Part shown: positions 7,055 through 27,565 of the stretch, in pieces | Layout: each line of letters begins with the position of its first letter | Numbering within the stretch: the first letter of the stretch is position 1 | Virus record (IMG/VR): IMGVR_UViG_3300003321_000927 | Length of the DNA stretch: 64,000 bases | From: a virus | Reading direction: 5' to 3' (one strand) | Program-made: the position numbers and the translations under genes | The notes under the pieces: model-generated | Seen by the model: the letters and a program-made list of their open reading frames with translations, nothing else | The model's database searches: none | Told to the model about the DNA's origin: nothing

Positions 7055-7617
7055 CACTCCTCCTCTTCGTACGTCCGGCGCCTGACCGTCTTGCCGATCG
7101 GCCGCCCGCGCTTGCGGCTCCGACGCCGCTTCGAATCGCGTATGTTGCGGCGATGTTGCGAGGTCGCCTGGACGTCGGGCGTCAACTTCGCCTCGCGCGG
7201 GTCGTTGTTGTCGACGTGCTTGTGGTGGGCGTGGCACAGCGTGCGCAGATGCCGCGCGTCGCACGCTTCACGCACGAAGTGGTCCCAGCCGGGCGCTCCG
7301 CGTTGCGGGCTGCCACAGCGCTCCCAGATGTGCCGGAGCTTCTCTTCGTGATGCACTTCCAGGAGCGCCTGGGTGTTGCATCGGCGGGTGCCGACCGTCC
7401 ACGTGCAGCGGTAGCCGTCACGGGCGACGACCTCGGCCTTCACCTTCGACCAGCGCGGATCCTTGTACAGCCAGCGGAACGGGTTCTTCTCCAGACGCCG
7501 GTGATCGCGCTTGCGCCGATGGTCAGGGCAACGCCCCTCGGGCGAGAGAACGCCGCATGGGCCCCACGAGCCGTCGCGCCGCTGCACCCTCTCCATGCAC
7601 GGCTTCAGGGCAGCCAT
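7054..7617 (-). CDS. HNH endonuclease
   Basis: Motifs VHHEEKLRHIW...CHAHHKHVDNN with Cys pairs. GGAGG lies 7 nt upstream of the ATG at 7617. Confidence 0.65.
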   Translation of the reverse strand: MAALKPCMERVQRRDGSWGPCGVLSPEGRCPDHRRKRDHRRLEKNPFRWLYKDPRWSKVKAEVVARDGYRCTWTVGTRRCNTQALLEVHHEEKLRHIWERCGSPQRGAPGWDHFVREACDARHLRTLCHAHHKHVDNNDPREAKLTPDVQATSQHRRNIRDSKRRRSRKRGRPIGKTVRRRTYEEEE

Positions 7618-7674
7618 GTAGGCGCCTCCTGCTGCCATGCTGCACGCATTCAACGAGACTAGGAAGGTGGTCGG

Positions 7675-7962
7675 ATGACACCCCAGATCTGGACGCCGGA
7701 GGACGAGTTCCGCCGTTGGTACCCGGCGCTCGGCGCGCGCCTCGACCGTCTCCCGTTCGCGGAGATAGCACAGCACGCGCTCGACATCGAGAAGGAGCTG
7801 CAGAGCGGCGAACGCGTCTGTTTGGAGGTCGAGAATGGCGCGATGCGTAGTGAGGGCGAACTGACGATCGGCTTCAGGACCGGTGCCGAAATCTCCTACA
7901 TGCTCACGAAGCCGTTCGGTGGCCTCGGCGACTGGCGACCCACTGGCTGGAGGCCAGCGTGA
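7675..7962 (+). CDS. hypothetical protein (95 aa)
   Basis: ORF preceded by GGAAGG; coding-like. Confidence 0.45.
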   Translation: MTPQIWTPEDEFRRWYPALGARLDRLPFAEIAQHALDIEKELQSGERVCLEVENGAMRSEGELTIGFRTGAEISYMLTKPFGGLGDWRPTGWRPA

Positions 7963-8213
7963 GGCTCTGGTGGCGCAAGCGCCGTCGCAAGGCCCGGCCC
8001 GGAGACTGCATTCGGCTCGACGGCAAGCTCTACATGGTCGTGGAGGTCACGTGGCCGCAACAGGAGGCGACGCTCGAACCGCTTGGCTCCCTGCTCGCGA
8101 ACTGGATGGCAGCGAGCGATGACGCGGGCGTGCCGATTCTGATCTTCGATCTGCTCGTCGACGCGGGCTGGACGCCGCCCGACACGAGCCGCCGCGTGAT
8201 GGGGTACAGCTAG
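7959..8213 (+). CDS. hypothetical protein (84 aa)
   Basis: Overlapping start/stop with the upstream gene. Confidence 0.4.
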   Translation: MRLWWRKRRRKARPGDCIRLDGKLYMVVEVTWPQQEATLEPLGSLLANWMAASDDAGVPILIFDLLVDAGWTPPDTSRRVMGYS

Positions 8214-8393
8214 GTGAAGTTCGTCATCGAGATAGAGGTTGACGACCCACCCAGCTACGCGGAAGAGGTCATCTGCAAGTCGATCGCGCTAAAGGCTGCG
8301 CGGGGCGCCCTCCTCGACAGCAACTTCACGCTGTCCATCACCCGCGTCGGGCCTTTCAGGATCGAGTCCGGCTTCATTCGAAGGGTCAATTGA
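8214..8393 (+). CDS. small hypothetical protein (59 aa; VKFVIEIEVDDPPSY...)
   Basis: GTG directly after the upstream TAG. Absent from the supplied ORF track (under 60 aa) but has clean coding character. Confidence 0.35.
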   Translation: MKFVIEIEVDDPPSYAEEVICKSIALKAARGALLDSNFTLSITRVGPFRIESGFIRRVN

Positions 8394-8395
8394 CC

Positions 8396-8725
8396 ATGAG
8401 CGTCACCATCAGGGGCGTCACGTTCATCAAGCTCGGGCCTGTCGACCGGCGCCAGTCGACGCTCGTATCGAAGCGTGGCCGGTACCTCTGTCCCTGGTGC
8501 TCCGACCTGGAGCGGCATCGCATCGTCGGCTTCTTCGGCACGCACCTCCCCGAGCACTTGATCAAGCACATGAAGCAGGACCACTACCGCTGCACGCAGT
8601 GTTACTGGGTCGGCGTGCGACCGGGGCAGCATGTTCGCCGGGGCCGGGAGCACGAAGCCTTTTCGCCGAATGGCGAACGACGCTTGCGCTATCGCAAGGT
8701 CAGGCTTTTCGATCGCTCTTCGTGA
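8396..8725 (+). CDS. zinc-binding protein (CPWC...CTQC)
   Basis: ORF with two CxxC pairs and His residues. Confidence 0.45.
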   Translation: MSVTIRGVTFIKLGPVDRRQSTLVSKRGRYLCPWCSDLERHRIVGFFGTHLPEHLIKHMKQDHYRCTQCYWVGVRPGQHVRRGREHEAFSPNGERRLRYRKVRLFDRSS

Positions 8726-9197
8726 AGTACGGCCGCGAGTATAGGTAGCCGGGGTAGCCGTAGTCGATCTTGCCGTTGTTGTGCAATTCGATGAAGCGCT
8801 GGCGGTCTTCCTGTGAGAAGTGCTGGAAGTAGAACTTGTGCCGCGGCCCCGTCGGAATGTGCTTCGCGCCGAAACAGACGAAGCACTCGACGCCCTCGGG
8901 ATTGGCCGCGGTCTTGTGTGTCGCGCCCTCGCCATGACACTCCCAGCAGGGCTTCTCCTTGTCCCCCCACTCCTCGACGTAGAGCTTGTAGCCCTTGTCT
9001 GTTGGGCCAAGCTGGGCGGCCTCCGACTCGATCAGCTCGAACAGGCGTGCTGGCGGCAGCGAGCCGCAGTAGGAACAGTGGAGCGCACCTTCGCGCTCGC
9101 GCCAAGTGTCCTCGCCTTGACGTTCCGGCTCGAAGATCGGCGAGTAGCCGCCCCAGCTCAGGTAGTCGAGACGGCGCGGACAGAAGAATGTGTTCAC
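8700..9197 (-). CDS. Cys-rich protein (about 165 aa; CSYCG, CWECHG, CFVCFGAKH)
   Basis: GTG at 9197 forms a GTGA overlap with the upstream stop. GGGGG lies 7 nt upstream. The C-terminal 165 aa of the 378-aa ORF look coding; the N-terminal part looks antisense-like. Confidence 0.45.
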   Translation of the reverse strand: MNTFFCPRRLDYLSWGGYSPIFEPERQGEDTWREREGALHCSYCGSLPPARLFELIESEAAQLGPTDKGYKLYVEEWGDKEKPCWECHGEGATHKTAANPEGVECFVCFGAKHIPTGPRHKFYFQHFSQEDRQRFIELHNNGKIDYGYPGYLYSRPYFTKSDRKA

Positions 9198-9388
9198 AGA
9201 TTCGCCCCCGGACACTCGTGATAGCGGAACGTCATGTCGACGACGTCGTGGTCGGCCCTCGGATCGCGGGAGGGCTCGACCATCACCTCGACGGGGTCGC
9301 TCCAGGTGCGGTATGCACCCGCCAGCTCGTGCGATATAACGCATGCATACTGGCCGGGCTGCAGCTTGACGGTCACCTCGCGCTCCAT
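9194..9388 (-). CDS. hypothetical protein (64 aa)
   Basis: Internal ATG at 9388 shares a nucleotide with the upstream stop (TGATG). Confidence 0.35.
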   Translation of the reverse strand: MEREVTVKLQPGQYACVISHELAGAYRTWSDPVEVMVEPSRDPRADHDVVDMTFRYHECPGANL

Positions 9389-9846
9389 CACGCCGCCTCG
9401 GGGCGACGAACGATCCGCCACACTTGCATCGGGCGACGGTGATTTTGCGGCATCGCCGACTTCCGCATGACATCGTTCCCTGAAGCGTCCATAACCTTCT
9501 CGATGAATCCTTCCGCCGCCACACGTCGCGTGATAGGTCCCATCGCGCGTCGGTCGTGAGTTTCGTCAGCAACCCCCCAGGCCTCCATCGTCTCCCAGAC
9601 AGGGTCGGTGATGATCTGCGTGTAGACCGAGGTGCGCAGCACATGCATCCAGGCATCGTAAGCACACTTCTTCCAGGACTCATCCGCGTTGTCGTGGACC
9701 TGCTCGATCGCTTCTTCGCGAAGCCTGATCCCCTCACTTGCATCGAGCACGCGCTTCGCCTCTTCGTCACGGACCCACTGCGGTACAGGCGGGACCTTGA
9801 AATGAGTCTCTTCGGGCGGGAAGGAGCCTTCGACATCGGGGCTCAT
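9388..9846 (-). CDS. hypothetical protein (152 aa)
   Basis: GGAGGAGAGAGCA precedes the ATG at 9846. Confidence 0.45.
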   Translation of the reverse strand: MSPDVEGSFPPEETHFKVPPVPQWVRDEEAKRVLDASEGIRLREEAIEQVHDNADESWKKCAYDAWMHVLRTSVYTQIITDPVWETMEAWGVADETHDRRAMGPITRRVAAEGFIEKVMDASGNDVMRKSAMPQNHRRPMQVWRIVRRPEAA

Positions 9847-10901: not shown

Positions 10902-11630
10902 TCAAACCTCCAGGGAGATGATCTTTTCGATGCGGCCGTCATCGTCGAGCCAGACTCCGGAAGGGCGACCGCCACCCTTACAGCCGGTATCGATGTTCAA
11001 GGTGAAGGTGCCATCCTGACGCTCGTACAGGACGGGCCCCTCAGGCATGGGCGTATGGCCGACGACCTGGGAGAAGCGCTTGTTCTTCTTCTCGCTACGG
11101 AAGTCCGACCAGAGGATGCCGCCCACTTCCGCGCGGCCACCGCGCGCCCAGCCGATGGCGTCGAGCACATAGTTTCGCCAGTTCGGATACTCCTGCCACG
11201 CTTTCTCGATCGCGAGGTAGGCCTCCTCGGCAGTCCAATCGCCGGTAAAGGCCCAGCCAGCGTGAGAGAGAAGCGTCTCCCCGACCAGGAGCGCGGGCAC
11301 CACGAACCCAGAGCGGCGCCAGGCGTTGTACTGGGAGCGCAGCGGCGGGTGGCCGTAATAGCCAGAGAAGGTCGCGGTGTCGTGGAGGTAGGGCCACTCG
11401 TGGTTGCCGACGATCAGATGGTCGAACCACTTGGGCGCGACGTGCGCGCACATCTCGTCGCCGGTCACATCTTCGAGCACGGCGTTGAGCAGATCGCCGA
11501 TTGAGACGATCGTCGTCGTCTCGCCCAGCTCTGTTAGCTCCTCGGTGTCCCCGACAAGCCCTTCCTGGTTCAGAAGGGCCCACAGAGCAGCAACGTTGCC
11601 ATGGATGTCGGAAACGACGAACGTGCTCAT
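10902..11630 (-). CDS. calcineurin-like metallophosphoesterase (lambda-phosphatase-like)
   Basis: Motifs DIHGN, GDLLN and GNHEW in the canonical order of the phosphoprotein phosphatase family. Confidence 0.75.
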   Translation of the reverse strand: MSTFVVSDIHGNVAALWALLNQEGLVGDTEELTELGETTTIVSIGDLLNAVLEDVTGDEMCAHVAPKWFDHLIVGNHEWPYLHDTATFSGYYGHPPLRSQYNAWRRSGFVVPALLVGETLLSHAGWAFTGDWTAEEAYLAIEKAWQEYPNWRNYVLDAIGWARGGRAEVGGILWSDFRSEKKNKRFSQVVGHTPMPEGPVLYERQDGTFTLNIDTGCKGGGRPSGVWLDDDGRIEKIISLEV

Positions 11631-11995: not shown

Positions 11996-12033
11996 GCTTC
12001 CATAACAGTACGAATGTCGTCGGACGACATTGC

Positions 12034-12048
12034 TAGCCTTGAAGGCTA
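12034..12048. promoter_or_regulatory. perfect 7-1-7 palindrome TAGCCTT-G-AAGGCTA between divergent genes (candidate operator)
   Basis: Read directly from the sequence. It overlaps the ATG and RBS of the + gene and lies 39 nt from the start of the - gene. Confidence 0.35.
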
Positions 12049-12389
12049 TGGAGAGGACAGTTGCAGATCGCCGCCGCTGGGTGTTGATCGACACGGCACG
12101 CGAGGGAGAGAACGCGCTCTACATCGCCTCGACCGTCTCCGACCTCGGCTTGGAGATGAATCGCCTCACAGCCCTCGTCGAACAGCACGGGATGATCGAG
12201 GAGATCGAGCTGCTCTCGCGCAAGGACAGGCGGATCATCTTCCGCTCCGGAGGCGTCGTCCAGTTCGTGCTCCGAGACGACGTGAGCAAGAGGACGCACG
12301 GTGCAAAGTTCGCCGTCGCAACGTCGACATCGGCGCTCAGCTACTGGGACCGCCGCGACGTGCGTACTACCGGCGCTCACTTCATCTGA
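12048..12389 (+). CDS. hypothetical protein (113 aa)
   Basis: ATG at 12048 preceded by GAAGG. The ORF runs up to the tRNA array. Confidence 0.45.
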   Translation: MERTVADRRRWVLIDTAREGENALYIASTVSDLGLEMNRLTALVEQHGMIEEIELLSRKDRRIIFRSGGVVQFVLRDDVSKRTHGAKFAVATSTSALSYWDRRDVRTTGAHFI

Positions 12390-12431
12390 GCTTGCCTTCG
12401 TCACGATCGCCGTCTAAACTGAGGCGCTCGC

Positions 12432-12505
12432 GGATCCCTAGCTCAGCCCGGTAGAGCGTCGGCTTGAAACACCGAAGGTCGCTGGTTCGACCCCAGCGGG
12501 ATCCA
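12432..12505 (+). tRNA. tRNA-Phe: tRNA-Phe (anticodon GAA)
   Basis: Hand-folded cloverleaf. Acceptor GGATCCC/GGGATCC, D-arm TAGCTCAGCCCGGTAGAGC, loop TTGAAAC, T-arm GCTGG-TTCGACC-CCAGC. Confidence 0.75.
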
Positions 12506-12508
12506 TCC

Positions 12509-12581
12509 GGACAGGTAGCTCAGTTGGGAGAGCGGCGGTCTGATAAGCCGCAGGTCGGAGGTTCAAATCCTTCTCTGTCCA
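12509..12581 (+). tRNA. tRNA-Ile: tRNA-Ile (anticodon GAT)
   Basis: Acceptor GGACAGG/TCTGTCC, anticodon loop CTGATAA, T-loop TTCAAAT. Confidence 0.75.
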
Positions 12582-12594
12582 CTGCAGTACGCGT

Positions 12595-12666
12595 GCCCGC
12601 GCAGCTCAACTGGTAGAGCACCGGCGTCGTAACCCGGAGGAAGGCGTTCGAGTCGTCTCGTGGGCT
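12595..12666 (+). tRNA. tRNA-Thr: tRNA-Thr (anticodon CGT), unusual G32
   Basis: Acceptor GCCCGCG/CGTGGGC, anticodon loop GTCGTAA, T-arm AGGCG-TTCGAGT-CGTCT. Confidence 0.6.
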
Positions 12667-12731
12667 CTTGGAGGGTGAGATGAGTCGCGACGGCATCGCG
12701 GCGGGTTCGACTCCCTGTAAGAGACACGCTC

Positions 12732-12804
12732 ATCCTCCTACGGGTCGCTAGCTTAATGGTCAGAGCGGTGGACTCTTAATCCATCAGGTCTCCGTTCGAG
12801 TCGG
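12732..12804 (+). tRNA. tRNA-Lys: tRNA-Lys (anticodon CTT)
   Basis: Acceptor GGGTCGC/GCGGCCC, anticodon loop CTCTTAA, T-arm CTCCG-TTCGAGT-CGGAG. Confidence 0.75.
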
Positions 12805-12808
12805 AGGC

Positions 12809-12881
12809 GGCCCTTTACGTCGACGTGGCCGAGGTGGTCAAGGCGCTCCGCTGCAAACGGAGAGATGTCGGCTCGACTCCG
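12809..12881 (+). tRNA. tRNA-Cys: tRNA-Cys (anticodon GCA), 1-72 mismatch
   Basis: Anticodon arm CTCCG-CTGCAAA-CGGAG is perfect. T-arm GTCGG-CTCGACT-CCGAC. The acceptor has a G1-A72 mismatch. Confidence 0.55.
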
Positions 12882-12903
12882 ACCGTCGGACTCTGGTACG
12901 TTC

Positions 12904-12976
12904 CGTCCGCCCTGCTCTCGTCAGCTAGTGGCCTAGGCTGCCTCCCTGTCGAGGAGGTCACGCGCGTTCAAATCGC
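12904..12976 (+). tRNA. tRNA-Asp: tRNA-Asp (anticodon GTC)
   Basis: Acceptor GCTCTCG/CGAGAGC perfect. Anticodon arm CCTCC-CTGTCGA-GGAGG. T-loop TTCAAAT. Confidence 0.8.
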
Positions 12977-12997
12977 GTCGAGAGCGTCGTCCGATAC

Positions 12998-13023
12998 GGG
13001 CACGAGACTCCTGTCTCGTGCCC
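12998..13023 (+). terminator. 11-bp perfect hairpin GGGCACGAGAC-TCCT-GTCTCGTGCCC after tRNA-Asp, overlapping the HNH start
   Basis: Inverted repeat read directly from the sequence. No T-tract follows, so this is a terminator-like or translational-occlusion structure. Confidence 0.35.
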
Positions 13024-13407
13024 TATGCGGATCCAGAGGCGCAGCGGCGATACCAGCGCGAGTGGGCGGCCAGCCGAAGGCGCGAGTACGTCGATGGGCA
13101 GGTCTGCGCGAAGTGTGGCAGTGACGAGCGACTCGAACTGCATCACCTCGACAAGACTACGAAGGTAAGCCACCGAATCTGGACGTGGTCGCGCGACCGT
13201 ATCGAGGCAGAGCTGGCGAAGTGCGAGTGGTGGTGTCGTAACTGCCACGAGAAGCACCATGCTGCAGAACAGCGCTACGACTGGGATGTGTGCGGGACGC
13301 GCGTCGGGTACAACAAACGTGGGTGTCGCTGTGAGAGATGTAAGCGGTGGCGCCGAGACGATGGCCGCGCATACCGCGCTCGGCAGCTTGACGCCGTCGC
13401 CGCCTAG
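13018..13407 (+). CDS. HNH endonuclease inserted in the tRNA array
   Basis: CAKCGS...LELHHLDKTTK...CRNCHEKHH, an HNH core with a zinc-binding Cys4. Confidence 0.7.
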   Translation: MPYADPEAQRRYQREWAASRRREYVDGQVCAKCGSDERLELHHLDKTTKVSHRIWTWSRDRIEAELAKCEWWCRNCHEKHHAAEQRYDWDVCGTRVGYNKRGCRCERCKRWRRDDGRAYRARQLDAVAA

Positions 13408-13427
13408 CACTACCCTGAGTCACTCGA

Positions 13428-13500
13428 TCGCGAGTAGCTCAATCGGTGGAGCGGCTCCCTGTTAAGGAGAAGGTTCCAGGTTCGACCCCTGGCTCGCGAG
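13428..13500 (+). tRNA. tRNA-Asn: tRNA-Asn (anticodon GTT)
   Basis: Acceptor TCGCGAG/CTCGCGA perfect. Anticodon loop CTGTTAA. T-arm CCAGG-TTCGACC-CCTGG. Confidence 0.75.
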
Positions 13501-13513
13501 CTTGAAGTAGCAC

Positions 13514-13586
13514 GGGCGTCTAGCTCATGTGGTAGAGCATCTGCCTTGCAAGCAGAGGGTGCGCGGTTCAAGTCCGCGGACGTCCA
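13514..13586 (+). tRNA. tRNA-Ala: tRNA-Ala (anticodon TGC)
   Basis: Acceptor GGGCGTC/GACGTCC. Anticodon arm TCTGC-CTTGCAA-GCAGA. T-arm CGCGG-TTCAAGT-CCGCG. Confidence 0.8.
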
Positions 13587-13659
13587 TGGCCGGTAGCTCA
13601 GTCGGTAGAGCGTCCGTATCACAAGCGGAAGGTCGCTGGTTCGAGCCCAGCGCGGCCAA
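13587..13659 (+). tRNA. tRNA-Val: tRNA-Val (anticodon CAC)
   Basis: Anticodon loop ATCACAA. T-arm GCTGG-TTCGAGC-CCAGC. Zero spacer to tRNA-Ala. One G-G mismatch at 7-66. Confidence 0.65.
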
Positions 13660-13665
13660 TTGCAC

Positions 13666-13737
13666 GAGCCTCTAGCTCAGCGGTAGAGCGCCTGCCCGAC
13701 ATGCAGGAGGCCCCTGGTTCGAGCCCAGGGAGGCTCA
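13666..13737 (+). tRNA. tRNA with anticodon loop CCGACAT (reads as GAC/Val, but with C33); identity uncertain
   Basis: Acceptor GAGCCTC/GAGGCTC, anticodon stem CCTGC/GCAGG and T-arm CCTGG-TTCGAGC-CCAGG are all perfect. The loop is noncanonical. Confidence 0.55.
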
Positions 13738-13738
13738 C

Positions 13739-13810
13739 TCCGAGGTAGCTCAGCGGAAGAGCGGACGCGTCCTAAGCGTACGGTCGCTGGTTCGAGTCCA
13801 GCTCTCGGAG
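13739..13810 (+). tRNA. tRNA-Arg: tRNA-Arg (anticodon CCT), G32
   Basis: Acceptor TCCGAGG/TCTCGGA. Loop GTCCTAA. T-arm GCTGG-TTCGAGT-CCAGC. Confidence 0.65.
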
Positions 13811-13882
13811 CTTCTGCAGGGCGAGAGAGGAGCCGCGGACGCAACGTAGGGTCGGGCCAGCCGCTTTAGCCCTGCAGATCAT

Positions 13883-13951
13883 GGGTCGGCCACTGGGTGG
13901 CGCTGGGTCTCCAAAGCCCGGTCGGGGTGCGTTCGAATCGTCCACGGCCCG
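13883..13951 (+). tRNA. possible degenerate tRNA-Trp-like element (loop CTCCAAA, T-loop TTCGAAT)
   Basis: T-loop and anticodon-loop signatures are present, but the D-arm and T-stem pair poorly. It lies just upstream of the CPR-like gene. Confidence 0.25.
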
Positions 13952-14248
13952 TTGAAGCTCTGGGTCGACGATGAGCGCCAGGCGCCCTGGGGATGGGTTC
14001 GCGCCGACACGTTCTGGGTCGCCTACGCGTGGATCTGGGCGGAGTGGCCGAGGCTCACCGAGATCTCGCTCGACCATGACCTCGGCGGCGAGAAGACCGG
14101 CTACGACCTGCTCGTGAAGATCGAGGAGGCAGTCGCCAGCGGCGCCGAGCGGGGCTTCGAGATCCATGTCCACACGGCGAACCCTGTCGGCCGGAAGAAC
14201 ATGCTCGCGGCCATCGCGTCGATCGAGCGTCTCGAAGCGAATCGTTGA
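13952..14248 (+). CDS. small protein with LWVDDER N-terminus (CPR / receiver-like domain family seen in phage RNA-repair neighbourhoods)
   Basis: MKLWVDDERQAPWGW...ISLDHDLGGEKTGYDL...EIHVHTANPVGR. The TTG start sits inside the tRNA array. Confidence 0.5.
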   Translation: MKLWVDDERQAPWGWVRADTFWVAYAWIWAEWPRLTEISLDHDLGGEKTGYDLLVKIEEAVASGAERGFEIHVHTANPVGRKNMLAAIASIERLEANR

Positions 14249-14285
14249 CTTCGTCCGACGGTCACGCTACAGTCCGGACTCGCAT

Positions 14286-14358
14286 TGCGGAGTGGAGCAG
14301 TTGGCAGCTCGCCAGGCTCATAACCTGGAGGTCGTGGGTTCAAGTCCCACCTCCGCGA
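14286..14358 (+). tRNA. tRNA-Met: tRNA-Met (anticodon CAT; elongator-type, or could be Ile-lysidine)
   Basis: Anticodon arm CCAGG-CTCATAA-CCTGG. T-arm GTGGG-TTCAAGT-CCCAC. Acceptor TGCGGAG/CTCCGCG. Confidence 0.75.
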
Positions 14359-14429
14359 CTGAAATGAAGTACGCACTGCAGCAGCCGCAGGAACATCACC
14401 AGCCCCGCTAGGGGCTTCGTGTGCTGCGC

Positions 14430-14501
14430 TGCAGGGTCGACTAATCGGTAGGTCATGCGACTCTGGATCGTAGGGTGAGGGTTCGAATCCTTCCCCTGCA
14501 G
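14430..14501 (+). tRNA. tRNA-Gln: tRNA-Gln (anticodon CTG)
   Basis: Acceptor TGCAGGG/CCCTGCA. Loop CTCTGGA. T-loop TTCGAAT. Confidence 0.7.
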
Positions 14502-14528
14502 CGGAGCACAAGAGGCTGGCTCCGACTC

Positions 14529-14599
14529 CTGAGCGTGGCATAACGGTAGCGCGCCTGGTTTGGGACCAGGAGGTGGAGGTTCAATTCCTCCCGCTCAGA
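14529..14599 (+). tRNA. tRNA-Pro: tRNA-Pro (anticodon TGG)
   Basis: Acceptor CTGAGCG/CGCTCAG. Anticodon arm CCTGG-TTTGGGA-CCAGG. T-arm GGAGG-TTCAATT-CCTCC. Confidence 0.65.
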
Positions 14600-14607
14600 T
14601 CCAACAT

Positions 14608-14679
14608 GGCACCGTAGTCTAGAGGTCTGGACGCCCGGCTCTCAACCGGGAGGCGAGGGATCGTTCCCCTCCGGTGCTA
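14608..14679 (+). tRNA. tRNA-Glu: tRNA-Glu (anticodon CTC), atypical T-loop ATCGTTC
   Basis: Acceptor GGCACCG/CGGTGCT. Anticodon arm CCCGG-CTCTCAA-CCGGG. T-stem GAGGG/CCCTC. Confidence 0.6.
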
Positions 14680-14681
14680 CT

Positions 14682-14755
14682 GCGAGAGGGTCGCCGTTGG
14701 TGGCGATGCTGGGATGTGACCCCAGTGGCCGCGGGTTCAATTCCCGTCTCTCGCC
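14682..14755 (+). tRNA. tRNA-His: tRNA-His (anticodon GTG)
   Basis: Acceptor GCGAGAG/CTCTCGC. Anticodon arm CTGGG-ATGTGAC-CCCAG. T-loop TTCAATT. Confidence 0.6.
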
Positions 14756-14811
14756 TGGTATAGTCAGCTCCGAGCCTAGCGGCGCCGGAGGCGCTGGCAG
14801 GCCTCCAGTGT

Positions 14812-14884
14812 GCGGGTGTAGCTCAATCGGTAGAGCACCGGCTTGCCAAGTCGGAGGTTGTGGGATCATGGCCCACCACTCGCT
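14812..14884 (+). tRNA. tRNA-Gly: tRNA-Gly (anticodon GCC), atypical T-loop ATCATGG
   Basis: Acceptor GCGGGTG/CACTCGC. Loop TTGCCAA. T-stem GTGGG/CCCAC. Confidence 0.65.
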
Positions 14885-14890
14885 TCTCAC

Positions 14891-14963
14891 GCGGACGTAG
14901 CTCAGTCGGTAGAGCAGGGCGCTTCCAACGCCAAGGTCGCGGGATCGTAGCCCGCCGTCCGCT
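14891..14963 (+). tRNA. tRNA-Gly: tRNA-Gly (anticodon TCC), atypical T-loop ATCGTAG
   Basis: Acceptor GCGGACG/CGTCCGC perfect. Loop CTTCCAA. T-stem GCGGG/CCCGC. Confidence 0.65.
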
Positions 14964-14975
14964 TCGCGATGGTGC

Positions 14976-15281
14976 ATGGCGACTGAGACTCATATCGCTG
15001 GGCTTCAGCTCAACATCGGCGAGCGCTACCTCGTACAGCGCTGCGCCTGGTGCGGCGCCGTGCTCCTGCACTACGACGCGACGCGTATCGCCGTCGCCGG
15101 AGAGTGGCAGCCCCCGAGCCTGTTTCCGGTCGGCCAGCTCGTCCGCTGCACGTACGACGGAGTCGCGCGCTGGGGCGAGATCGCTCTCAGTCGGACGATG
15201 ATGGTTGTGCTCGACGACGAGAAGATGCCGGACGATGCGTGCCCGCTGAATTTGACGTATGACGTCGTCTTCGATCGCTAG
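14976..15281 (+). CDS. hypothetical protein (101 aa) embedded in the tRNA array
   Basis: ATG at 14976. Coding-like, containing CAWCG...C. Confidence 0.4.
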   Translation: MATETHIAGLQLNIGERYLVQRCAWCGAVLLHYDATRIAVAGEWQPPSLFPVGQLVRCTYDGVARWGEIALSRTMMVVLDDEKMPDDACPLNLTYDVVFDR

Positions 15282-15326
15282 AGTGGGTGACGTGGCACAG
15301 TGCCGCTCATCGAGTACGTCCGAATA

Positions 15327-15344
15327 GCCCGCGTTCGCGCGGGC
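15327..15344 (+). terminator. hairpin GCCCGCG-TTCG-CGCGGGC downstream of the 101-aa ORF
   Basis: 7-bp GC stem with a TTCG tetraloop, read directly. No U-tract follows. Confidence 0.3.
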
Positions 15345-15357
15345 CTCGTCGACGTCT

Positions 15358-15445
15358 GGATGGGTAAGCCGAGTTGGTCTACCGGCCGCTGTCTCGAAAA
15401 CAGTTGGGTGTCGCAGCCGTGGGGGTTCGAGTCCCTCCCCATCCG
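15358..15445 (+). tRNA. tRNA-Ser: tRNA-Ser (anticodon CGA), long variable arm
   Basis: Acceptor GGATGGG/CCCATCC perfect. Loop CTCGAAA. T-arm GGGGG-TTCGAGT-CCCTC. 88 nt. Confidence 0.75.
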
Positions 15446-15452
15446 CTCACAA

Positions 15453-15536
15453 GGAAGCGATCCGGCTGGATGAGGGGCCTCGTTGCTAGCGAGGTAGGTG
15501 CTTTGCGCCGTGCGCGTTCGAGTCGCGCCGCTTCCG
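15453..15536 (+). tRNA. tRNA-Ser: tRNA-Ser (anticodon GCT), long variable arm
   Basis: Acceptor GGAAGCG/CGCTTCC perfect. Anticodon arm CCTCG-TTGCTAG-CGAGG. T-arm GCGCG-TTCGAGT-CGCGC. Confidence 0.7.
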
Positions 15537-15917
15537 TTACCATCTTCGGGATGCCGCTGATCGAACGGACACTCTCCGACGGCCGAGTGCTCACGGTGGA
15601 GCGACGGCTCTACAACACGCTGCTCACGGTCTCGACGCCGAACGAGTATCCCTACACCTGGTCTCTCGGCTACTGATACGAGCGACCGGAGGACGCCGTG
15701 CGCGTCTGCGAGGAATGGAATGGAGAAGGCGAGCCCGATGGCTGGCACCGCGCCTACGACGGCTCCCATCGTCGGCGGCCGGGTGGAGACGCAAGCCGCG
15801 AGTACATCGAGCCTTGACTCCGTCCGCGCCGTGTGGCACGATGCCGTTCGGCATGATGCGCCAGTTCTTGTATCTGTGCCTTAGCTAGCCCGGCCGGTCG
15901 GCTGGGCCTCATTCGCT

Positions 15918-16003
15918 GGGCGCGTGACGGAACTGGATAACGTAGCGGGCTGTAACCTCGCTGTCCTGGCTAACAGGTGGTCGTTCGAATCGACCCGCGC
16001 CCA
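15918..16003 (+). tRNA. tRNA-Tyr: tRNA-Tyr (anticodon GTA), long variable arm
   Basis: Acceptor GGGCGCG/CGCGCCC perfect. Loop CTGTAAC. T-arm GGTCG-TTCGAAT-CGACC perfect. Confidence 0.7.
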
Positions 16004-16009
16004 TCACCT

Positions 16010-16094
16010 CCCGAGGTGGTGAAATCTGGCGAGACACACCGGTCTCAGAAACCGGCGGCTTCGGGCCATGAGGGTTCGACTCCCTCCCTCGGGA
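16010..16094 (+). tRNA. tRNA-Leu: tRNA-Leu (anticodon CAG), long variable arm
   Basis: Acceptor CCCGAGG/CCTCGGG. Anticodon arm CCGGT-CTCAGAA-ACCGG. T-arm GAGGG-TTCGACT-CCCTC. Confidence 0.7.
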
Positions 16095-16238
16095 CTTCAG
16101 CTTGCTTGATCGCGTCTGCGGCATCGAGCCCGCCAGTAGCGCTGTCCGATCGCCGAGCCGACGCCGATCAAGACGCCCTTGCCGATCAGGATGAGCGCAC
16201 CGAAGAGCATGCTCGGACTGTAGAGGCCGGTCCGGTCG

Positions 16239-16748
16239 CTATTCTGCGGGATAGTACCGCTCGATCAGATCGGAGCAGCCATGGCGCTCGGCGAACGCAA
16301 GGGTCTCAGTCCGGAGGAACTTTCGCTCGATCGGTTGCCGCCGATTGTGGTGCCGCCTGTGCGCTCGCTCGCACACGCACAGGCCGTCGTCCACGTCCCA
16401 GGTGAAGGCGGCGAGCCCGCGTCGACGAAGCTGTTGCTGGGTGACGACGTGATGGGCTTGCAGCGCCCCTTCGCAGACCTCACCCCGGCGAGCGCATACT
16501 TCGCACCCGCGCGCGACGACGATCGTACGCCACACCTCGCTGGCCTGCTGTTCGACCGCCGAACGTTTCGGCTTCGGCCGCGCCTGGATCGCTTTCTTCT
16601 GCTGGAGCGGCTTTCTCTTCTTCGGAGACGACGCTGACTTCAGTCGCATCTTCCGCTTGAGTGGCCCGCCGCGCTTCAGGGGCTTACGACGCTCCACTAT
16701 CGCGCTTTGCCTCGCGCACCGCCCAGGCTCGCGCCGTGCTGATTGCAA
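16239..16748 (-). CDS. HNH endonuclease
   Basis: CEVCARRGEVCEGALQAHHVV...CVCERAHRRHH. The basic N-terminus could instead start at MRLKS (about 16649). Confidence 0.6.
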   Translation of the reverse strand: MQSARREPGRCARQSAIVERRKPLKRGGPLKRKMRLKSASSPKKRKPLQQKKAIQARPKPKRSAVEQQASEVWRTIVVARGCEVCARRGEVCEGALQAHHVVTQQQLRRRGLAAFTWDVDDGLCVCERAHRRHHNRRQPIERKFLRTETLAFAERHGCSDLIERYYPAE

Positions 16749-19814: not shown

Positions 19815-21236
19815 TCAGTCTTTGTATGGGTCGAAGGTGTCGGGTCCGGCCATGACGACGCCGATCGGTGACAGCCGGTGTGCGATCTCGATGTTCGGGT
19901 GGTGCGCGAGCACCTCGTCGAGGCGCTTGTAGGCCCCAGGCGCCTCATCCGCGCCCGCGCCGAGCACGACAATCCCCCTCTCGGTCAGAGAGGCTCTCGT
20001 GGCATCCCAATCGATCGCGGCCGTGCTCGCGTCCCGCATCCGCTCCCGGCGCAGCGGAATGCCGCACTGGGGGCAGTGGTTCGAGGGGAAGCCTGTCTTG
20101 TTTCCGGTGCTCGGGATTGGCTCGAAGTCACAGTTGCGGTTCGGGCAGACCCACATCTTCCGCATCTTCCCCGCCGCCTTCGTTCGGCTCATCTGTCGTC
20201 CGGCACCGTGCGGCGCCGAGCCGAGGTTGCCAAGGTCGACGACGCGCCCGTAGAGCGAGTCGAGCATCTGCTCGTGACCCTCCTGCGGATCCGGCATCTT
20301 GCCGCGAACGATGTAGCTGTCGTCGCCCATCGAGCCGCCGATGAAGGCGTAGTCCTCGGTAAGCGGGGTCGCGCCTTTGCGAACGACCCAAAGCTTGTCG
20401 GGGCCCTCCTGCCAGGCGAAGTTGTGGTGGTTGTGGACGTAGAAGGTGGGCTTCGCGCCGAGGATCTCCAGCACCTGGTTGAGCACGTAGTCGCGGCCCG
20501 CGTAGGCGTAGCGCCCAGCGAGCTTCATCGCCTCGATGTAGAACTGACCGAGGTCGCTGTTGGTGGAGAAGACGACCGGATCGTCGCTCTCCTTCACTCG
20601 CTCTGTGAAGGCTAGGCCTTCTGCCGCGGCCAGGAAGCCGGAGGCGATCGTGTGCCCGAGGCCACGTGAGCCGAAGTGGTTCGCGACCCAGACGTAGCCA
20701 TGCTCGTCGACGAGCAGGTCGACGTAGTGGTTGCCGGAGCCGACTGTCCCGAGCTGCTGCGCCGCTTTGTCGTAGAGGCCGACACCGAACTCGTTGATGA
20801 CGTCGAGCCAGATGTTCTGGCCGCGGTCGAGCACCTCGTGATCGAACGGCGTCTCGTTCTTCCGGCCCATGCCAAAGGAGACTTTGCGCTGGATCTCACG
20901 CATGAAAGGCTTGACTCCCGCGTGGATGATCTCGGGCTCTTCTGTCGATGTCTCTGCGTTTGCCTGGCCGACAACGCTGACCAGTAGGTCAGCGAGGCGG
21001 ATATTCGTTCTTGCGCAGGCGTTGCCGCACGCAATGTCGAAGCCAACTCCGTTCGGACTGATCGCCTCCTCGAACGCGACGACACCGCCGATCGGCATCG
21101 AGTAACCCTTGTGATGGTCGGCCATGAGCGCTCCCTTCACGGCTTGTGGTTGGTCGAGCACGTTCTGGATCTGCAGGAGCGAGGCTTCGTCGACGGGATC
21201 GCCGAAGACAGCGAGCGGCTTGGTAGCGACAGTCAT
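19815..21236 (-). CDS. rtcB: RtcB-family 3'-phosphate/5'-hydroxyl RNA ligase with a C-terminal zinc-ribbon insertion
   Basis: Motifs ADHHKGYSMPIGGV, GSGNHY, NHHNFAW, HGAGR and APGAYK in RtcB order. An inserted CPNRNC...CPQCG segment is present. Internal ATG at 21236. Confidence 0.85.
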   Translation of the reverse strand: MTVATKPLAVFGDPVDEASLLQIQNVLDQPQAVKGALMADHHKGYSMPIGGVVAFEEAISPNGVGFDIACGNACARTNIRLADLLVSVVGQANAETSTEEPEIIHAGVKPFMREIQRKVSFGMGRKNETPFDHEVLDRGQNIWLDVINEFGVGLYDKAAQQLGTVGSGNHYVDLLVDEHGYVWVANHFGSRGLGHTIASGFLAAAEGLAFTERVKESDDPVVFSTNSDLGQFYIEAMKLAGRYAYAGRDYVLNQVLEILGAKPTFYVHNHHNFAWQEGPDKLWVVRKGATPLTEDYAFIGGSMGDDSYIVRGKMPDPQEGHEQMLDSLYGRVVDLGNLGSAPHGAGRQMSRTKAAGKMRKMWVCPNRNCDFEPIPSTGNKTGFPSNHCPQCGIPLRRERMRDASTAAIDWDATRASLTERGIVVLGAGADEAPGAYKRLDEVLAHHPNIEIAHRLSPIGVVMAGPDTFDPYKD

Positions 21237-21372
21237 GTGCGAACCAGCCCGATCGAGACGCCGGTCGACTTCGGCTCCTTCGTGCGCCAGAGATGCATGC
21301 CGAGGAAGACCTTCTCCGCGAACAGAAAGCCGATGCGGAATACGCCATCGAGCGTGCCACAGACGAAGCTGA

Positions 21373-21597
21373 TCACGCTGCACGTCCTCTCCGAAGGCGC
21401 TTCGGGACGGCGGCGAGCGAGACGGCCTTTGCGTCCGGCACTAGCTGCGCGAGCCACTCCTTCTGCGTCTTCTGGTCGATGTAGTCGCCCTCCTCTCGCG
21501 CGCCCCAGCCTTCGGCGAGGCGGTAGTCGCCGGTGATCGGCACCCCATGCCGCCGCAAGTCCCTGAGGCGCCGGGCGTTCTTGCGTAGGAAACTCAT
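21373..21597 (-). CDS. hypothetical protein (74 aa)
   Basis: ORF directly upstream of RtcB. Confidence 0.4.
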   Translation of the reverse strand: MSFLRKNARRLRDLRRHGVPITGDYRLAEGWGAREEGDYIDQKTQKEWLAQLVPDAKAVSLAAVPKRLRRGRAA

Positions 21598-21706: not shown

Positions 21707-22675
21707 CTACCTCGTCGTCGCGACTACACCGCCGAAACTGGATCCGCCCGGCCAGCAGGAGAAGCCCGCTGGTACGGCGACACCGGCCTTCTGCTCGGCG
21801 TCGAGCCAGTCGATGCAACGCGAGACGAGTACCAGCTCGGAGAGGCCGCCCTTCTGCCGCGCGAGCGCGGCATTCGCCTTCGACTCGGCTGCGTTCGTCT
21901 TCTCGCGCTGGACTGCAATCTGGGTCTGTGCGACCTGTTGCTGGAGCTGGTTGATCCGGTTCTGCGTCTTGTCGTCGAAGTGGACGATCGGGAGCTGTAC
22001 GTTCAGGACCTCGATCAGTGGCTTGCCGTTGATGTCGGTCACCTTCGACTTCATGCCGTTGTAGATCTTCGTCGCATAGCCGGGGAGCGGGTTGCGAGCC
22101 CCTTTGCCGGAGGCGATCGATGCCAGCGGGTTGTACGCGGCGAGCGCCTCGTTCGTCGCGTTGAACAGCTTGCGGTCGACGAGCTGCTTCTCGATGTGCG
22201 AGAACGAGCGGTAGTTCTTGTACAGATAGTCGACCTGCGAGGGATTGACCCTCCACTGGATCGAGACCTCGGCGCAGCCAGTCTGGTTGTTCGCGATGCG
22301 GACCTGCAGGCAGCGCTTGTCGAGGTGATCGAGCGTCTGGATGGCGCCGTCGATCTCGACGACCTTCGTCCAGGGCGAAACCGGCCAGTGCGGGCCCGCG
22401 CCGTAGTGGGTCGTGCCGACCTTCCCGAAGGTGACCGGCACGCCGATCTCCTTCGTGTTGACCCTGCGGAAGGTCGAGAAGAAGAGCGGGATCAAGGCCA
22501 GTACGGCCAAGACGGCGGCGCTAGCCGCGAACCACAGTCGCCACCTGCGGGCGGACTGCATCGCGTAGGTGTTCCGCGTCTCCTGCTCACCCCGGTGCGG
22601 CGGCCAGAAACGGCGTCCGAGCCAGAGCCCCAGCGCGATCAGAAGGAGGATGATGCCGAAGATGAACAAGCCCAT
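21707..22675 (-). CDS. membrane protein with band-7/SPFH (prohibitin/HflK-like) domain
   Basis: N-terminal TM helices, then VNTKEIGVPVTFGKV...IANNQTGCAEVSIQWRVNP...YKNYRS, which is typical of an SPFH beta/alpha core. Confidence 0.55.
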   Translation of the reverse strand: MGLFIFGIILLLIALGLWLGRRFWPPHRGEQETRNTYAMQSARRWRLWFAASAAVLAVLALIPLFFSTFRRVNTKEIGVPVTFGKVGTTHYGAGPHWPVSPWTKVVEIDGAIQTLDHLDKRCLQVRIANNQTGCAEVSIQWRVNPSQVDYLYKNYRSFSHIEKQLVDRKLFNATNEALAAYNPLASIASGKGARNPLPGYATKIYNGMKSKVTDINGKPLIEVLNVQLPIVHFDDKTQNRINQLQQQVAQTQIAVQREKTNAAESKANAALARQKGGLSELVLVSRCIDWLDAEQKAGVAVPAGFSCWPGGSSFGGVVATTR

Positions 22676-26653: not shown

Positions 26654-26838
26654 CGCCCGACCCGCCGCCGCATCGAGATCGCGATGTCGATCGCGCAGAC
26701 GACGAACGCGCCGAAGAGCCCGAGCGAGGCGAGCTTCCAGACGCCCCAGATGCCGTTGTACTCCGCGGCGCCGACGCCTTCGAAGAGGTTCGTCTCCTCG
26801 ACGCTAGAGGTAAACCACGCCGATTCCGTGGGCTGCAT
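26650..26838 (-). CDS. small membrane protein (about 62 aa)
   Basis: Internal ATG at 26838. The TM segment LASLGLFGAFVVCAIDIAI is present. It overlaps the methyltransferase 3' end by 35 nt. Confidence 0.35.
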   Translation of the reverse strand: MQPTESAWFTSSVEETNLFEGVGAAEYNGIWGVWKLASLGLFGAFVVCAIDIAISMRRRVGR

Positions 26839-27334
26839 CACAGGCCTCCTTGGTGACGTAGGCGTCCGTGTCGTACATCGTGGCGAGCTGCCCGAACACG
26901 CGCCCAGGGGGATAGAGGGTGTCCTCGGAGCCATCGGGCGCGGCGATGTCGTGCATCAGAAGCACGCCGCCGGGCGCGATCATCGGCTGGTAGTGGAAGA
27001 CGTCCTGCCGCACAGCGTCGAAGCCGTGGTCGCCGTCGATGAAGACCCAGTCGTAGGGCCCGTAGCTGCGCACGCAATCGACGACGGAGAGTGTCTGGCT
27101 CTTACCGTAGACCGTGACGAGGTCGGTGTCGGGATGCTTCCAGTGCTCGTAGGCGCGCACGTTCGGATGGTTGAGGTCGACCGCAACCACGACGGCTCCG
27201 GGGCGCGCGTGGACCAGCCACTCCTTCAGCGTGCCGCCGTACCAGACGCCGATCTCCAGGATCCGCTTCGGCTTTCGCTCGACGTAGAGAGCGATCATGC
27301 GCTCCAGCTCGTCCGCGACCTGCAGGACATCCAT
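26804..27334 (-). CDS. class I SAM-dependent methyltransferase (TylF/MycF-like O-methyltransferase fold)
   Basis: ILEIGVWYGGTL...VVAVDLN...DWVFIDGDH...GGVLLMHDI. ATG at 27334. Confidence 0.65.
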   Translation of the reverse strand: MDVLQVADELERMIALYVERKPKRILEIGVWYGGTLKEWLVHARPGAVVVAVDLNHPNVRAYEHWKHPDTDLVTVYGKSQTLSVVDCVRSYGPYDWVFIDGDHGFDAVRQDVFHYQPMIAPGGVLLMHDIAAPDGSEDTLYPPGRVFGQLATMYDTDAYVTKEACDAAHGIGVVYL

Positions 27335-27565
27335 CACCTCGACCCCTCCCTGGCGTAGAAGCCGTACGGGTGACCGCAGTGAACGCAGCCGAGGTAGAAC
27401 TTCGTCTTGTCCTCGATGTCGGCCGTGCGGTTCTCCTGCTTTTTGTGGCAGCGCTCGCAGACGACGATCATTCGCACTGGTCGCAGTCGCCCGGATCGCC
27501 GCAAGGGCAGTTCTTGCTCTCATCCATGTCGGCGAGCTTAGGGCGCCCGTCGGACGGACTTGCTG

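Follow-up and report, generated by a model that had tools for sequence, protein, structure and literature searches.

Phage T4 carries transfer RNA (tRNA) genes which, together with Rnl1 and Pnk, counter the host nuclease PrrC. For the larger sets of tRNA genes known as phage tRNA arrays, codon compensation and nuclease evasion are both published hypotheses, and the evasion model, which was built on the cluster C1 mycobacteriophages, holds that loop variants make phage tRNAs poor nuclease substrates (PMC10264068). In bacterial L-arrays the most widespread associated coding gene is HNH, and rtcB is linked or co-regulated (PMC8421152). Arrays of tRNA genes carry HNH genes more often than any other coding passenger, and these genes have been tied to variation in array content (PMC5966550, PMC8421152). 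A further protein family, the cyclic-phosphate processing receiver (cREC), was originally described as a phosphoesterase predicted to act on cyclic phosphates and to be connected with RNA ligases (PMC7824862). Here we describe an array of 21 firm and two probable tRNA genes in the IMG/VR virus record IMGVR_UViG_3300003321_000927. An HNH endonuclease gene and a cREC gene are embedded in the array, and an RtcB RNA ligase gene lies nearby. The DNA analysed, 64,000 nucleotides (nt) in length, is called the window, and all positions given for this phage are those of the window.

The tRNA gene array

The array occupies positions 12432-16094 on the plus strand, a span of 3.7 kb. ARAGORN with default settings called 20 tRNAs at 12432-16095, all of them on the plus strand, and none elsewhere in the window, and 19 of these 20 genes reach the gathering score of the Rfam model RF00005. 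The default Rfam search placed 19 genes at 45-69 bits, and the sensitive mode, which adds Ser-CGA (40 bits) and Thr-CGT (45 bits), placed 20 genes at 40-69 bits. A tRNA was counted as firm if its cloverleaf scored at least 29 bits (the RF00005 curated threshold) or if ARAGORN called it by default, and the union of the two predictors gives 21 such genes. Three stretches fall below this level, namely Ser-GCT (26 bits), Trp (22.8 bits) and 12667-12741 (12 bits). The original prediction, of an array of about 23 tRNA genes, is thus upheld by 21 genes that lie above predictor thresholds, rather than most of them lying below, together with two sub-threshold candidates that fold into cloverleaves. All 20 amino acids are covered once the probable Trp is counted, each of them once or twice. 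None of the array tRNA genes encodes a CCA end, so that the host CCA-adding enzyme must finish the tRNAs. No transfer-messenger RNA (tmRNA) was found in the window by either ARAGORN or Rfam.

The genes are packed tightly into five rightward blocks, the first running from Phe to Asp, the second from Asn to Arg with Trp behind it and the third from Met to Gly, while the fourth holds the two Ser genes and the fifth those for Tyr and Leu. The spacers between array genes range from 0 nt to a few hundred nt. In what follows the scores are those of Rfam, all genes are on the plus strand, and each was called by ARAGORN by default unless otherwise stated. The first block comprises tRNA-Phe(GAA) (12432-12505; 61.9 bits), tRNA-Ile(GAT) (12509-12581; 69.1 bits), tRNA-Thr(CGT) (12595-12666; 45 bits, with ARAGORN at relaxed threshold only), tRNA-Lys(CTT) (12742-12814; 60.5 bits), tRNA-Cys(GCA) (12819-12891; 48.1 bits, with model positions 3-68 only aligned) and tRNA-Asp(GTC) (12914-12987; 50 bits), which has G73. 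The tRNA-Cys departs from the usual pattern in having C54 (T-loop CTCGACT), a G1xA72 mismatch and C73.

The second block starts with tRNA-Asn(GTT) (13428-13500; 61.8 bits) and tRNA-Ala(TGC) (13514-13586; 60.4 bits), the latter with a G3:U70 pair, followed by tRNA-Val(CAC) (13587-13659; 56.9 bits), tRNA-Val(GAC) (13666-13737; 64.3 bits) and tRNA-Arg(CCT) (13739-13810; 53.2 bits). The tight packing that had been noticed here is real, with zero spacer between Ala and Val-CAC (13586/13587) and 1 nt between Val-GAC and Arg (13737, 13739). One tRNA had been left with an ambiguous anticodon loop, CCGACAT; the tRNA stands, at 64 bits, and the ambiguity is resolved by reading the loop as that of Val-GAC with C33.

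The third block holds tRNA-Met(CAT) (14286-14358; 64.4 bits), tRNA-Gln(CTG) (14430-14501; 55.3 bits), tRNA-Pro(TGG) (14529-14599; 63 bits), tRNA-Glu(CTC) (14608-14679; 58.5 bits), tRNA-His(GTG) (14682-14755), tRNA-Gly(GCC) (14812-14884; 61.5 bits) and tRNA-Gly(TCC) (14891-14963; 60.6 bits). The best Rfam match of tRNA-His is to the tRNA-Sec model, at 33.4 bits and below that model's threshold; the gene has C73 and is without an encoded G-1. The remaining genes are all class II: tRNA-Ser(CGA) (15358-15445; 40 bits) and the probable tRNA-Ser(GCT) in the fourth block, and tRNA-Tyr(GTA) (15918-16004; 49 bits) and tRNA-Leu(CAG) (16010-16094; 50.9 bits) in the fifth.

The sole tRNA-Met is initiator-like, with A11:U24 and a weak U1-G72 in the ARAGORN drawing, and is 78% identical to tRNA #30 of cluster C1 phages, which tRNAscan-SE types as fMet. 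If it is an initiator, then the array would be without an elongator Met tRNA.

Candidate tRNAs below threshold

The 69-nt stretch at 13883-13951 had been taken for a degenerate remnant and is better read as a non-canonical tRNA-Trp(CCA). ARAGORN reports Trp-CCA when its threshold is relaxed to 80%, and the stretch adopts a cloverleaf as its minimum free energy (MFE) fold. The D-arm is very small (CCAC-TGG-GTGG), the anticodon loop reads CUCCAAA and the T-loop TTCGAAT, and the discriminator is G73. In bacteria, the identity of tRNA-Trp depends mainly on the CCA anticodon and G73. Six of the seven acceptor-stem positions are paired, in the same register as in the original prediction, and the gene is flawed by mismatches at G7xA66 and at one UxC position of the T-stem.

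The same small-D-arm architecture is displayed by Trp #15 of the cluster C1 phages, by locus L172 and by a Methylobacterium contig (L173), and the four stems pair in all four examples despite differing acceptor sequences. Trp #15 is the commonest tRNA-Trp of cluster C1, being present in 79.5% of 161 phages, and is labelled 'pseudo' by tRNAscan-SE. On the Methylobacterium contig, the tRNA-Trp(CCA) at 8221-8292 combines a very small D-arm with an encoded CCA end and adjoins a tRNA-Tyr; ARAGORN made no call here and the Rfam score is 23 bits. The contig has the same sequence as locus L259, the 60-kb contig NZ_LABX01000106.1 of Methylobacterium aquaticum DSM 16371, so that this type of tRNA-Trp is also present outside actinophages. 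A scan of genome contigs for the small-D-arm Trp pattern returned 89 matches, mostly due to chance, and only two were tRNA-like, one on the M. aquaticum contig and one in an Alcaligenaceae metagenome-assembled genome. Small-D-arm tRNA-Trp is found in at least three lineages, though predictors reject it or call it a pseudogene. Taken together, 13883-13951 is probably the tRNA-Trp of the array, completing the 20 amino acids; as it has the most defects among the four examples, it is graded as probable and not as firm.

The second candidate, tRNA-Ser(GCT) at 15453-15536, scores 26 bits, with the tRNA-Sec model only, and its MFE fold is a cloverleaf of -41.4 kcal/mol. The acceptor, anticodon, variable and T arms are perfect, the D-stem is a weak one of 2 bp, and the discriminator is G73. 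Relaxed ARAGORN misreads the anticodon; the loop, TTGCTAG, is identical to that in the Ser-GCT of phage Magritte.

The other supposed remnant, at 12667-12730, proved to be weakly tRNA-like. The stretch 12667-12741, on the plus strand, matches the Rfam tRNA-Sec model at 12 bits (E = 4.6), and its fold (-30.7 kcal/mol, z-score -2.1) combines a terminal helix of 10 bp with a hairpin of 7 bp and a T-arm that is degenerate, GGGTTCGACTCCC. No anticodon was found in it by ARAGORN at relaxed threshold, and it may be a decayed tRNA.

Loop sequences and covariation

T-loops that begin with ATC had been pointed out in tRNA-Glu (ATCGTTC), Gly-GCC (ATCATGG) and Gly-TCC (ATCGTAG), and G32 in tRNA-Thr and tRNA-Arg; both features are seen on the arms extracted from the sequence. 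All three A54 tRNAs also have U58, a detail missing from the original prediction. Each A54 is thus paired with U58, which means that the universal U54-A58 pair has been swapped and not lost. In Thr-CGT (loop GTCGTAA), G32 is joined by a C31xC39 mismatch, so that the anticodon loop is effectively enlarged, and the loop of Arg-CCT is GTCCTAA.

As a background, 381 distinct ARAGORN tRNAs were taken from the fetched loci, most of which had been brought in by an RtcB relative. In this set A54 occurs in 3.4%, C33 in 6.6% and G32 in 2.4% of tRNAs, and U58 always occurs with A54 (8 of 8 cases; Fisher p = 1e-13, n = 381). The A54/U58 covariation suggests that the array tRNAs are under structural constraint and are not decaying.

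The view that these loop features are unusual did not survive comparison, since they are typical of actinophage arrays (cluster C1, cluster M and Magritte). Indeed, a caveat had been entered that A54 might be lineage-typical, and A54 does recur in cluster C1, Rey and Magritte. A full-text literature search for A54/U58 was without result, and the swapped A54:U58 pair, recurrent across actinophage arrays, is of possible use to tRNA specialists, as is the small-D-arm tRNA-Trp. As G32 (Thr-CGT and Arg-CCT) and C33 (Val-GAC) are shared by unrelated phages, tRNAs carrying them would make good test substrates for nuclease evasion.

A separate observation concerns C33 in another virus record. Locus L078 (IMGVR_UViG_3300049742_000195) has a 32-tRNA array at 7095-9800, beside an RtcB gene, in which C33 is unusually concentrated, being present in at least six tRNAs (Tyr, Cys, Ser, Thr, Ile and Ala).

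Protein-coding genes in and around the array

An HNH endonuclease and a CPR-like gene had been proposed to interrupt the array, and family searches identify both. The HNH gene (13018-13407, plus strand, 129 amino acids) matches phrog_4234 (E = 1.4e-33); residues 1-123 align to positions 1-124 of 130, with the motifs CAKCG...LELHHLD...CRNCHEKHH, and none of the Pfam HNH models gave a match to it. Its nearest relatives by tblastn, at 45% identity, all lie within tRNA arrays of cluster C1 mycobacteriophages, and one of them, LinStu gp169, sits between two Thr genes. The location of these relatives in other arrays, and the rank of HNH genes as the commonest array passengers, make a homing role plausible. 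The suggested HNH-mediated mobility of tRNA blocks is likewise plausible. A second, weakly HNH-like open reading frame (ORF) of 169 amino acids (16239-16748, minus strand) converges on the right end of the array; its E-values are 2e-4 to 6e-4 with PHROG HNH families and 0.07 with Pfam HNH_2.

The CPR-like gene encodes a cREC domain protein of 98 amino acids (13952-14248, plus strand; PF20274, E = 8.8e-23; phrog_1479). The match scores 81.2 bits against a cut-off of 27, with residues 1-88 aligned to profile positions 1-86 of 88, and the protein has the motifs VDDER and SLDHDLG. Its reading frame offers a TTG as the earliest start codon, and this TTG follows the discriminator base of the Trp-like tRNA without a gap (13951/13952). 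This leaves no room for a ribosome-binding site, and a cut at the 3' end of the tRNA would leave a leaderless cREC mRNA.

The RtcB RNA ligase gene (19815-21383, minus strand) encodes 522 amino acids and matches PF01139 (E = 9.5e-60, 203 bits) and phrog_1075 (E = 2.7e-69). Alignment with the RtcB of P. horikoshii (4dwr) shows that the motifs for metal binding and guanylylation, DIaCG, GSGNH, GSRGLGH and PHGAGR, are kept, so that the protein appears intact and is predicted to have ligase activity. On the other side, 0.8 kb left of the array, lies a gene for a calcineurin-like metallophosphoesterase of 242 amino acids (10902-11630, minus strand; PF00149, E = 1.7e-10). That this enzyme heals RNA ends is something we only infer. 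Pfam and PHROG searches of the other left-arm ORFs and of the ORFs near RtcB found no RNA-related family.

Two candidate promoters precede tRNA blocks. A promoter scan identified a sigma-70-like promoter, TTGACT-17-TACAGT, at 14245-14273 on the plus strand, which agrees with the consensus at 9 of 12 positions and ends 12 nt before tRNA-Met. A promoter-like sequence, TTGCCT-17-TAAACT, was found by eye at 12392-12420 on the same strand; it agrees at 8 of 12 positions, lies below the scanner cut-off and ends 11 nt before tRNA-Phe.

Three inverted-repeat structures were also found, all on the plus strand. A perfect 11-bp hairpin just after tRNA-Asp (12998-13023) has a folding energy of -27.4 kcal/mol (z-score -6.3, with 0 of 200 shuffles as stable), and as the GTG start of the HNH gene (13018-13020) lies in its 3' arm, translation of HNH would be limited. 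Between Arg and Trp, an inverted repeat gives a long imperfect hairpin (13813-13878; -36.1 kcal/mol, z-score -3.5, 0 of 200 shuffles as stable), which from its predicted fold could be a processing site or a terminator-like element. The flanks of tRNA-Gln, at 14414-14436 and 14494-14516, form an inverted repeat (z-score -3.2) that lengthens the acceptor helix by about 16 bp.

Codon usage and a proposed function

When the anticodon set was compared with the codons of the phage, as had been recommended with the original prediction, the commonest codon was found to be read for 18 of the 20 amino acids. The exceptions are Leu, where CTC is used more than CTG, and Arg, whose sole tRNA (CCT) reads AGG, which makes up 8.9% of Arg codons. 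Of 14,767 phage codons, 74% are readable by the set under strict wobble, and 81% if U34 reads all four. The set therefore copies the most-needed readers and is not a rare-codon supplement, Arg-CCT/AGG excepted.

Our preferred reading, which we hold to be rather probable, is that the array and its associated genes constitute a phage-encoded tRNA supply-and-repair kit that keeps late translation going. The tRNA blocks would be transcribed as multi-gene precursors from the sigma-70-like promoters before tRNA-Phe and tRNA-Met, and host RNase P and 3'-end nucleases would release the tRNAs. Since these read the most-used codons of the phage, late protein synthesis would be sustained when host tRNAs run short or are cleaved by anticodon-loop nucleases. 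G32, C33 and the enlarged Thr loop may make the phage tRNAs poor substrates for anticodon nucleases; G32, C33 and C31xC39 are the same changes as those in the C1 tRNAs flagged 'mutations' or 'loop + mutations'. Those tRNAs that are cut could be rejoined by RtcB, which would join 2',3'-cyclic-phosphate or 3'-phosphate ends to 5'-OH ends, and the embedded cREC protein, possibly with the neighbouring metallophosphoesterase, would process such ends. The HNH endonuclease would be a selfish homing-type passenger that may aid the swapping of tRNA blocks between phages.

Several observations weigh against this proposal. The RtcB gene is on the opposite strand, 3.7 kb right of the array, and the best PHROG family of the metallophosphoesterase is a NinI-like Ser/Thr phosphatase. 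The tRNA set is not self-sufficient, as 91% of Arg, 66% of Leu and 51% of Thr codons are without a phage reader. Both Trp and Ser-GCT score below all detection thresholds. Moreover, the array includes Ser-CGA, a tRNA whose anticodon is cut by VapC and which is said to be avoided in cluster C1 for that reason (PMC10264068).

A pure supply of codon-reading capacity is a live rival, which we regard as possible rather than probable and which is compatible with the repair reading. Here the tRNAs would raise the species demanded by the late genes, with Arg-CCT added for AGG; host nucleases would have no role, and the odd loops would be neutral and inherited. That the set follows the commonest codons of the phage is what this explanation predicts. 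It also gains from codon frequencies, since ACG and GCG (read by Thr-CGT and Ala-TGC) reach 49% and 44.5% in the phage, compared with 17% and 26% of their families in M. smegmatis, and AGG makes up 8.9% of Arg codons compared with 4.6%, M. smegmatis serving here as a stand-in for the host. The published analysis of cluster C1 was without a codon-usage signal (PMC10264068). Moreover, supply by itself leaves unexplained both the presence of cREC in the array with RtcB nearby and the recurrence of loop variants in the same isoacceptors.

It is improbable that the array is mostly selfish cargo, an HNH-spread and partly decaying mobile module of little benefit to the phage: such an origin would suit the HNH gene inside the array, the HNH-like ORF at its right edge, the nearest HNH relatives in arrays of unrelated phages, and the sub-threshold, defective or possibly decaying parts (12667-12741, Trp, Ser-GCT, Cys, His and an ORF with an in-frame TGA, described below), but 19 genes stand at the Rfam gathering score with 45-69 bits, stems remain paired, the A54/U58 covariation points to purifying selection, the 20 amino acids are each represented once or twice without drift-type duplications, and the set fits phage codon usage.

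Stop codons and an in-frame TGA

A small ORF on the plus strand of the array (15551-15817) is interrupted in its translation by an in-frame TGA at 15674-15676. G+C content at third codon positions (GC3) stays at a coding-type level beyond this stop, and the homologues P0002 and P0003, which have Ile or Cys where the TGA falls, align across it (WNGEGEPDGW...RRRPGGDASREY), the part behind the stop still being conserved. The ORF has no Pfam or PHROG match. The TGA is either a recent nonsense mutation or a site of read-through.

Stop codons were counted on an approximate gene list. The late structural and lysis genes (n = 19) end in TAG 13 times, TGA four times and TAA twice, whereas the remaining genes (n = 47) end in TGA 30 times, TAG 11 times and TAA six times (Fisher p = 0.002). 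The dominance of TAG is unusual for a genome of 64% GC, and about half of the late TAGs abut or overlap the next start (TAGATG, TAGTG). Stop-codon reassignment was considered and rejected, as the standard code leaves the long structural ORFs unbroken and 34 of 66 genes still terminate in TGA.

The Hirsh suppressor of E. coli is a tRNA-Trp mutated in the D-arm; it reads UGA although its anticodon is still CCA. Reading of UGA late in infection by the small-D-arm tRNA-Trp(CCA), in the same manner, would connect the ORF with its in-frame TGA, the avoidance of TGA stops in late genes and the abutment of the tRNA on the cREC start. We consider it very unlikely, given that the homologues have Ile or Cys and not Trp at the TGA position, that cluster C1 has the same tRNA type yet 73% TGA stops, and that the long structural ORFs are without in-frame TGA.

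The phage and its other genes

The window derives from a tailed phage. A phage origin is evident from the virion proteins that it encodes, namely a major head protein (62205-63620, minus strand), a tape measure protein of 2889 amino acids (36812-45481, minus strand), a minor tail protein and an endolysin-like protein. The structural, tail and endolysin-like genes are on the minus strand from about 24 kb to 64 kb, the genes counted as late lying at 28607-63620. Given the exceptional length of the tape measure protein, the tail should be very long. Genes for an SPFH/Band 7 protein (21707-22675, minus strand; PF01145, E = 6e-18) and a class I methyltransferase (26804-27523, minus strand; PF13578, E = 2e-13) are located between RtcB and the lysis genes. 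Two ORFs at the array are rightward, each with a GC3 of 0.83. One, of 119 amino acids (12030-12389, plus strand), comes first among the rightward genes, its end lying 43 nt from tRNA-Phe; it has no Pfam match and its sole PHROG match is weak. The other, of 101 amino acids (14976-15281, plus strand), starts 12 nt after Gly-TCC and has neither a Pfam nor a PHROG match.

Megablast against 50,697 phage records gave no DNA match for the phage, the array yielding chance tRNA matches only. No phage in the collection has a major head protein more than 34% identical to that of the window, the best matches being Gordonia and Arthrobacter phages. The nearest relatives of RtcB are at best 58% identical in IMG/VR and 57% identical in JGI metagenomes; no array was found beside the best IMG/VR matches, and a neighbouring 503-amino-acid protein had no match in IMG/VR. 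The cREC protein has five distant matches in IMG/VR. At least five tRNAs were present in 16 of the 171 fetched loci, most of which were fetched for an RtcB relative. Exact-protein look-ups returned the same phage alone, in run SRR1926128 and on a 71-kb JGI contig.

The head-protein and HNH matches and the tRNA features suggest an actinobacterial host. The best RtcB and cREC matches, which are to phages of Acidobacteria and Alphaproteobacteria, run contrary to this hint. Membership of the cluster M or cluster C1 mycobacteriophages was rejected, in the light of the missing megablast match, the head-protein identity of at most 34% and the 31% identity of RtcB to that of Rey.

Comparison with known systems

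Like the phage described here, T4 carries tRNAs together with enzymes for healing and sealing a cleaved anticodon loop. It has only eight tRNAs, compared with 21-23 in the window. In T4, 5'-phosphate and 3'-OH ends are ligated after healing, whereas an RtcB of the type found in the window seals 3'-phosphate or cyclic-phosphate ends directly. The bacterial L-arrays and the Mycobacterium tRNA array units (PMC5966550) resemble the window in being dense, with 20-40 tRNA genes, and in belonging to mobile DNA. Such arrays belong to cells or plasmids, and translational stress induces them, whereas the array described here is in the genome of a virion-forming phage.

The Streptomyces BE-cluster phage Bmoc (Samistivirus) has a cREC homologue (about 40% identity) inside its tRNA/tmRNA region, with repair enzymes within a few kb. 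The repair set of Bmoc consists of an ATP-dependent RNA ligase and a polynucleotide kinase, and not of RtcB as in the window; BE-cluster genomes are 131-133 kb in size, and the Bmoc cREC gene, unlike that of the window, does not abut a tRNA gene.

The cluster M phages (Rey, Bongo and PegLeg) are reportedly siphoviruses with very long tails. They resemble the window in siphovirus build and in having one array of about 22 tRNAs for all or nearly all amino acids, and differ from it in arrangement, the array of the window lying between leftward gene blocks with RtcB on the opposite strand. Rey (JF937105) is particularly similar, with an HNH gene at the array, 22 tRNAs, RtcB within about 1-4 kb and a nearby metallophosphoesterase, and it has A54:U58 T-loops (ATCGTAA) in His and Glu-CTC. 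Rey has a tmRNA, which the window is without, and in the window cREC is embedded in the array. The RtcB proteins are 31% identical, and no relationship of the HNH and phosphoesterase proteins of the window to those of Rey was detectable. Judging by these protein comparisons, the resemblance to Rey is one of layout and not of shared descent of the whole module.

The closest parallels in the tRNAs themselves are with cluster C1 (Bixzunavirus; LinStu, Bxz1; PMC10264068). As in the window, the Thr-CGT of these phages has G32 and C31xC39 and their Glu-CTC and His genes are adjacent, with a spacer of 1-2 nt; the Arg-CCT loop GTCCTAA is identical, and so is Val-GAC in its C33 and its anticodon stem CCTGC/GCAGG. 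ATCGTAA T-loops are found in Gly-GCC, where A54:U58 is shared with the window, and in Asp. Cluster C1 differs from the window in that its phages are myoviruses of 154 kb, in which about 33 tRNAs are accompanied by a tmRNA and a peptidyl-tRNA hydrolase. The tRNAs of the window and of cluster C1 are 68-81% identical, which does not exceed the identity seen between different isoacceptors. For this reason a recent common origin of the tRNAs is not supported, and at such identities shared descent and convergence of the C1-like features are not separable. A54 also occurs in the Microbacterium phage Magritte, in the same three tRNAs as in the window (Glu-CTC, Gly-TCC and Gly-GCC).

Overall, the phage itself is new, and its module of near-complete tRNA set, HNH and RNA repair is of an already described type, shared with cluster M and C1 mycobacteriophages and Streptomyces BE phages. 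The value of the comparison is mostly confirmatory, and the presence of the module in an otherwise unsampled phage strengthens the view that it recurs and is exchangeable between phages.

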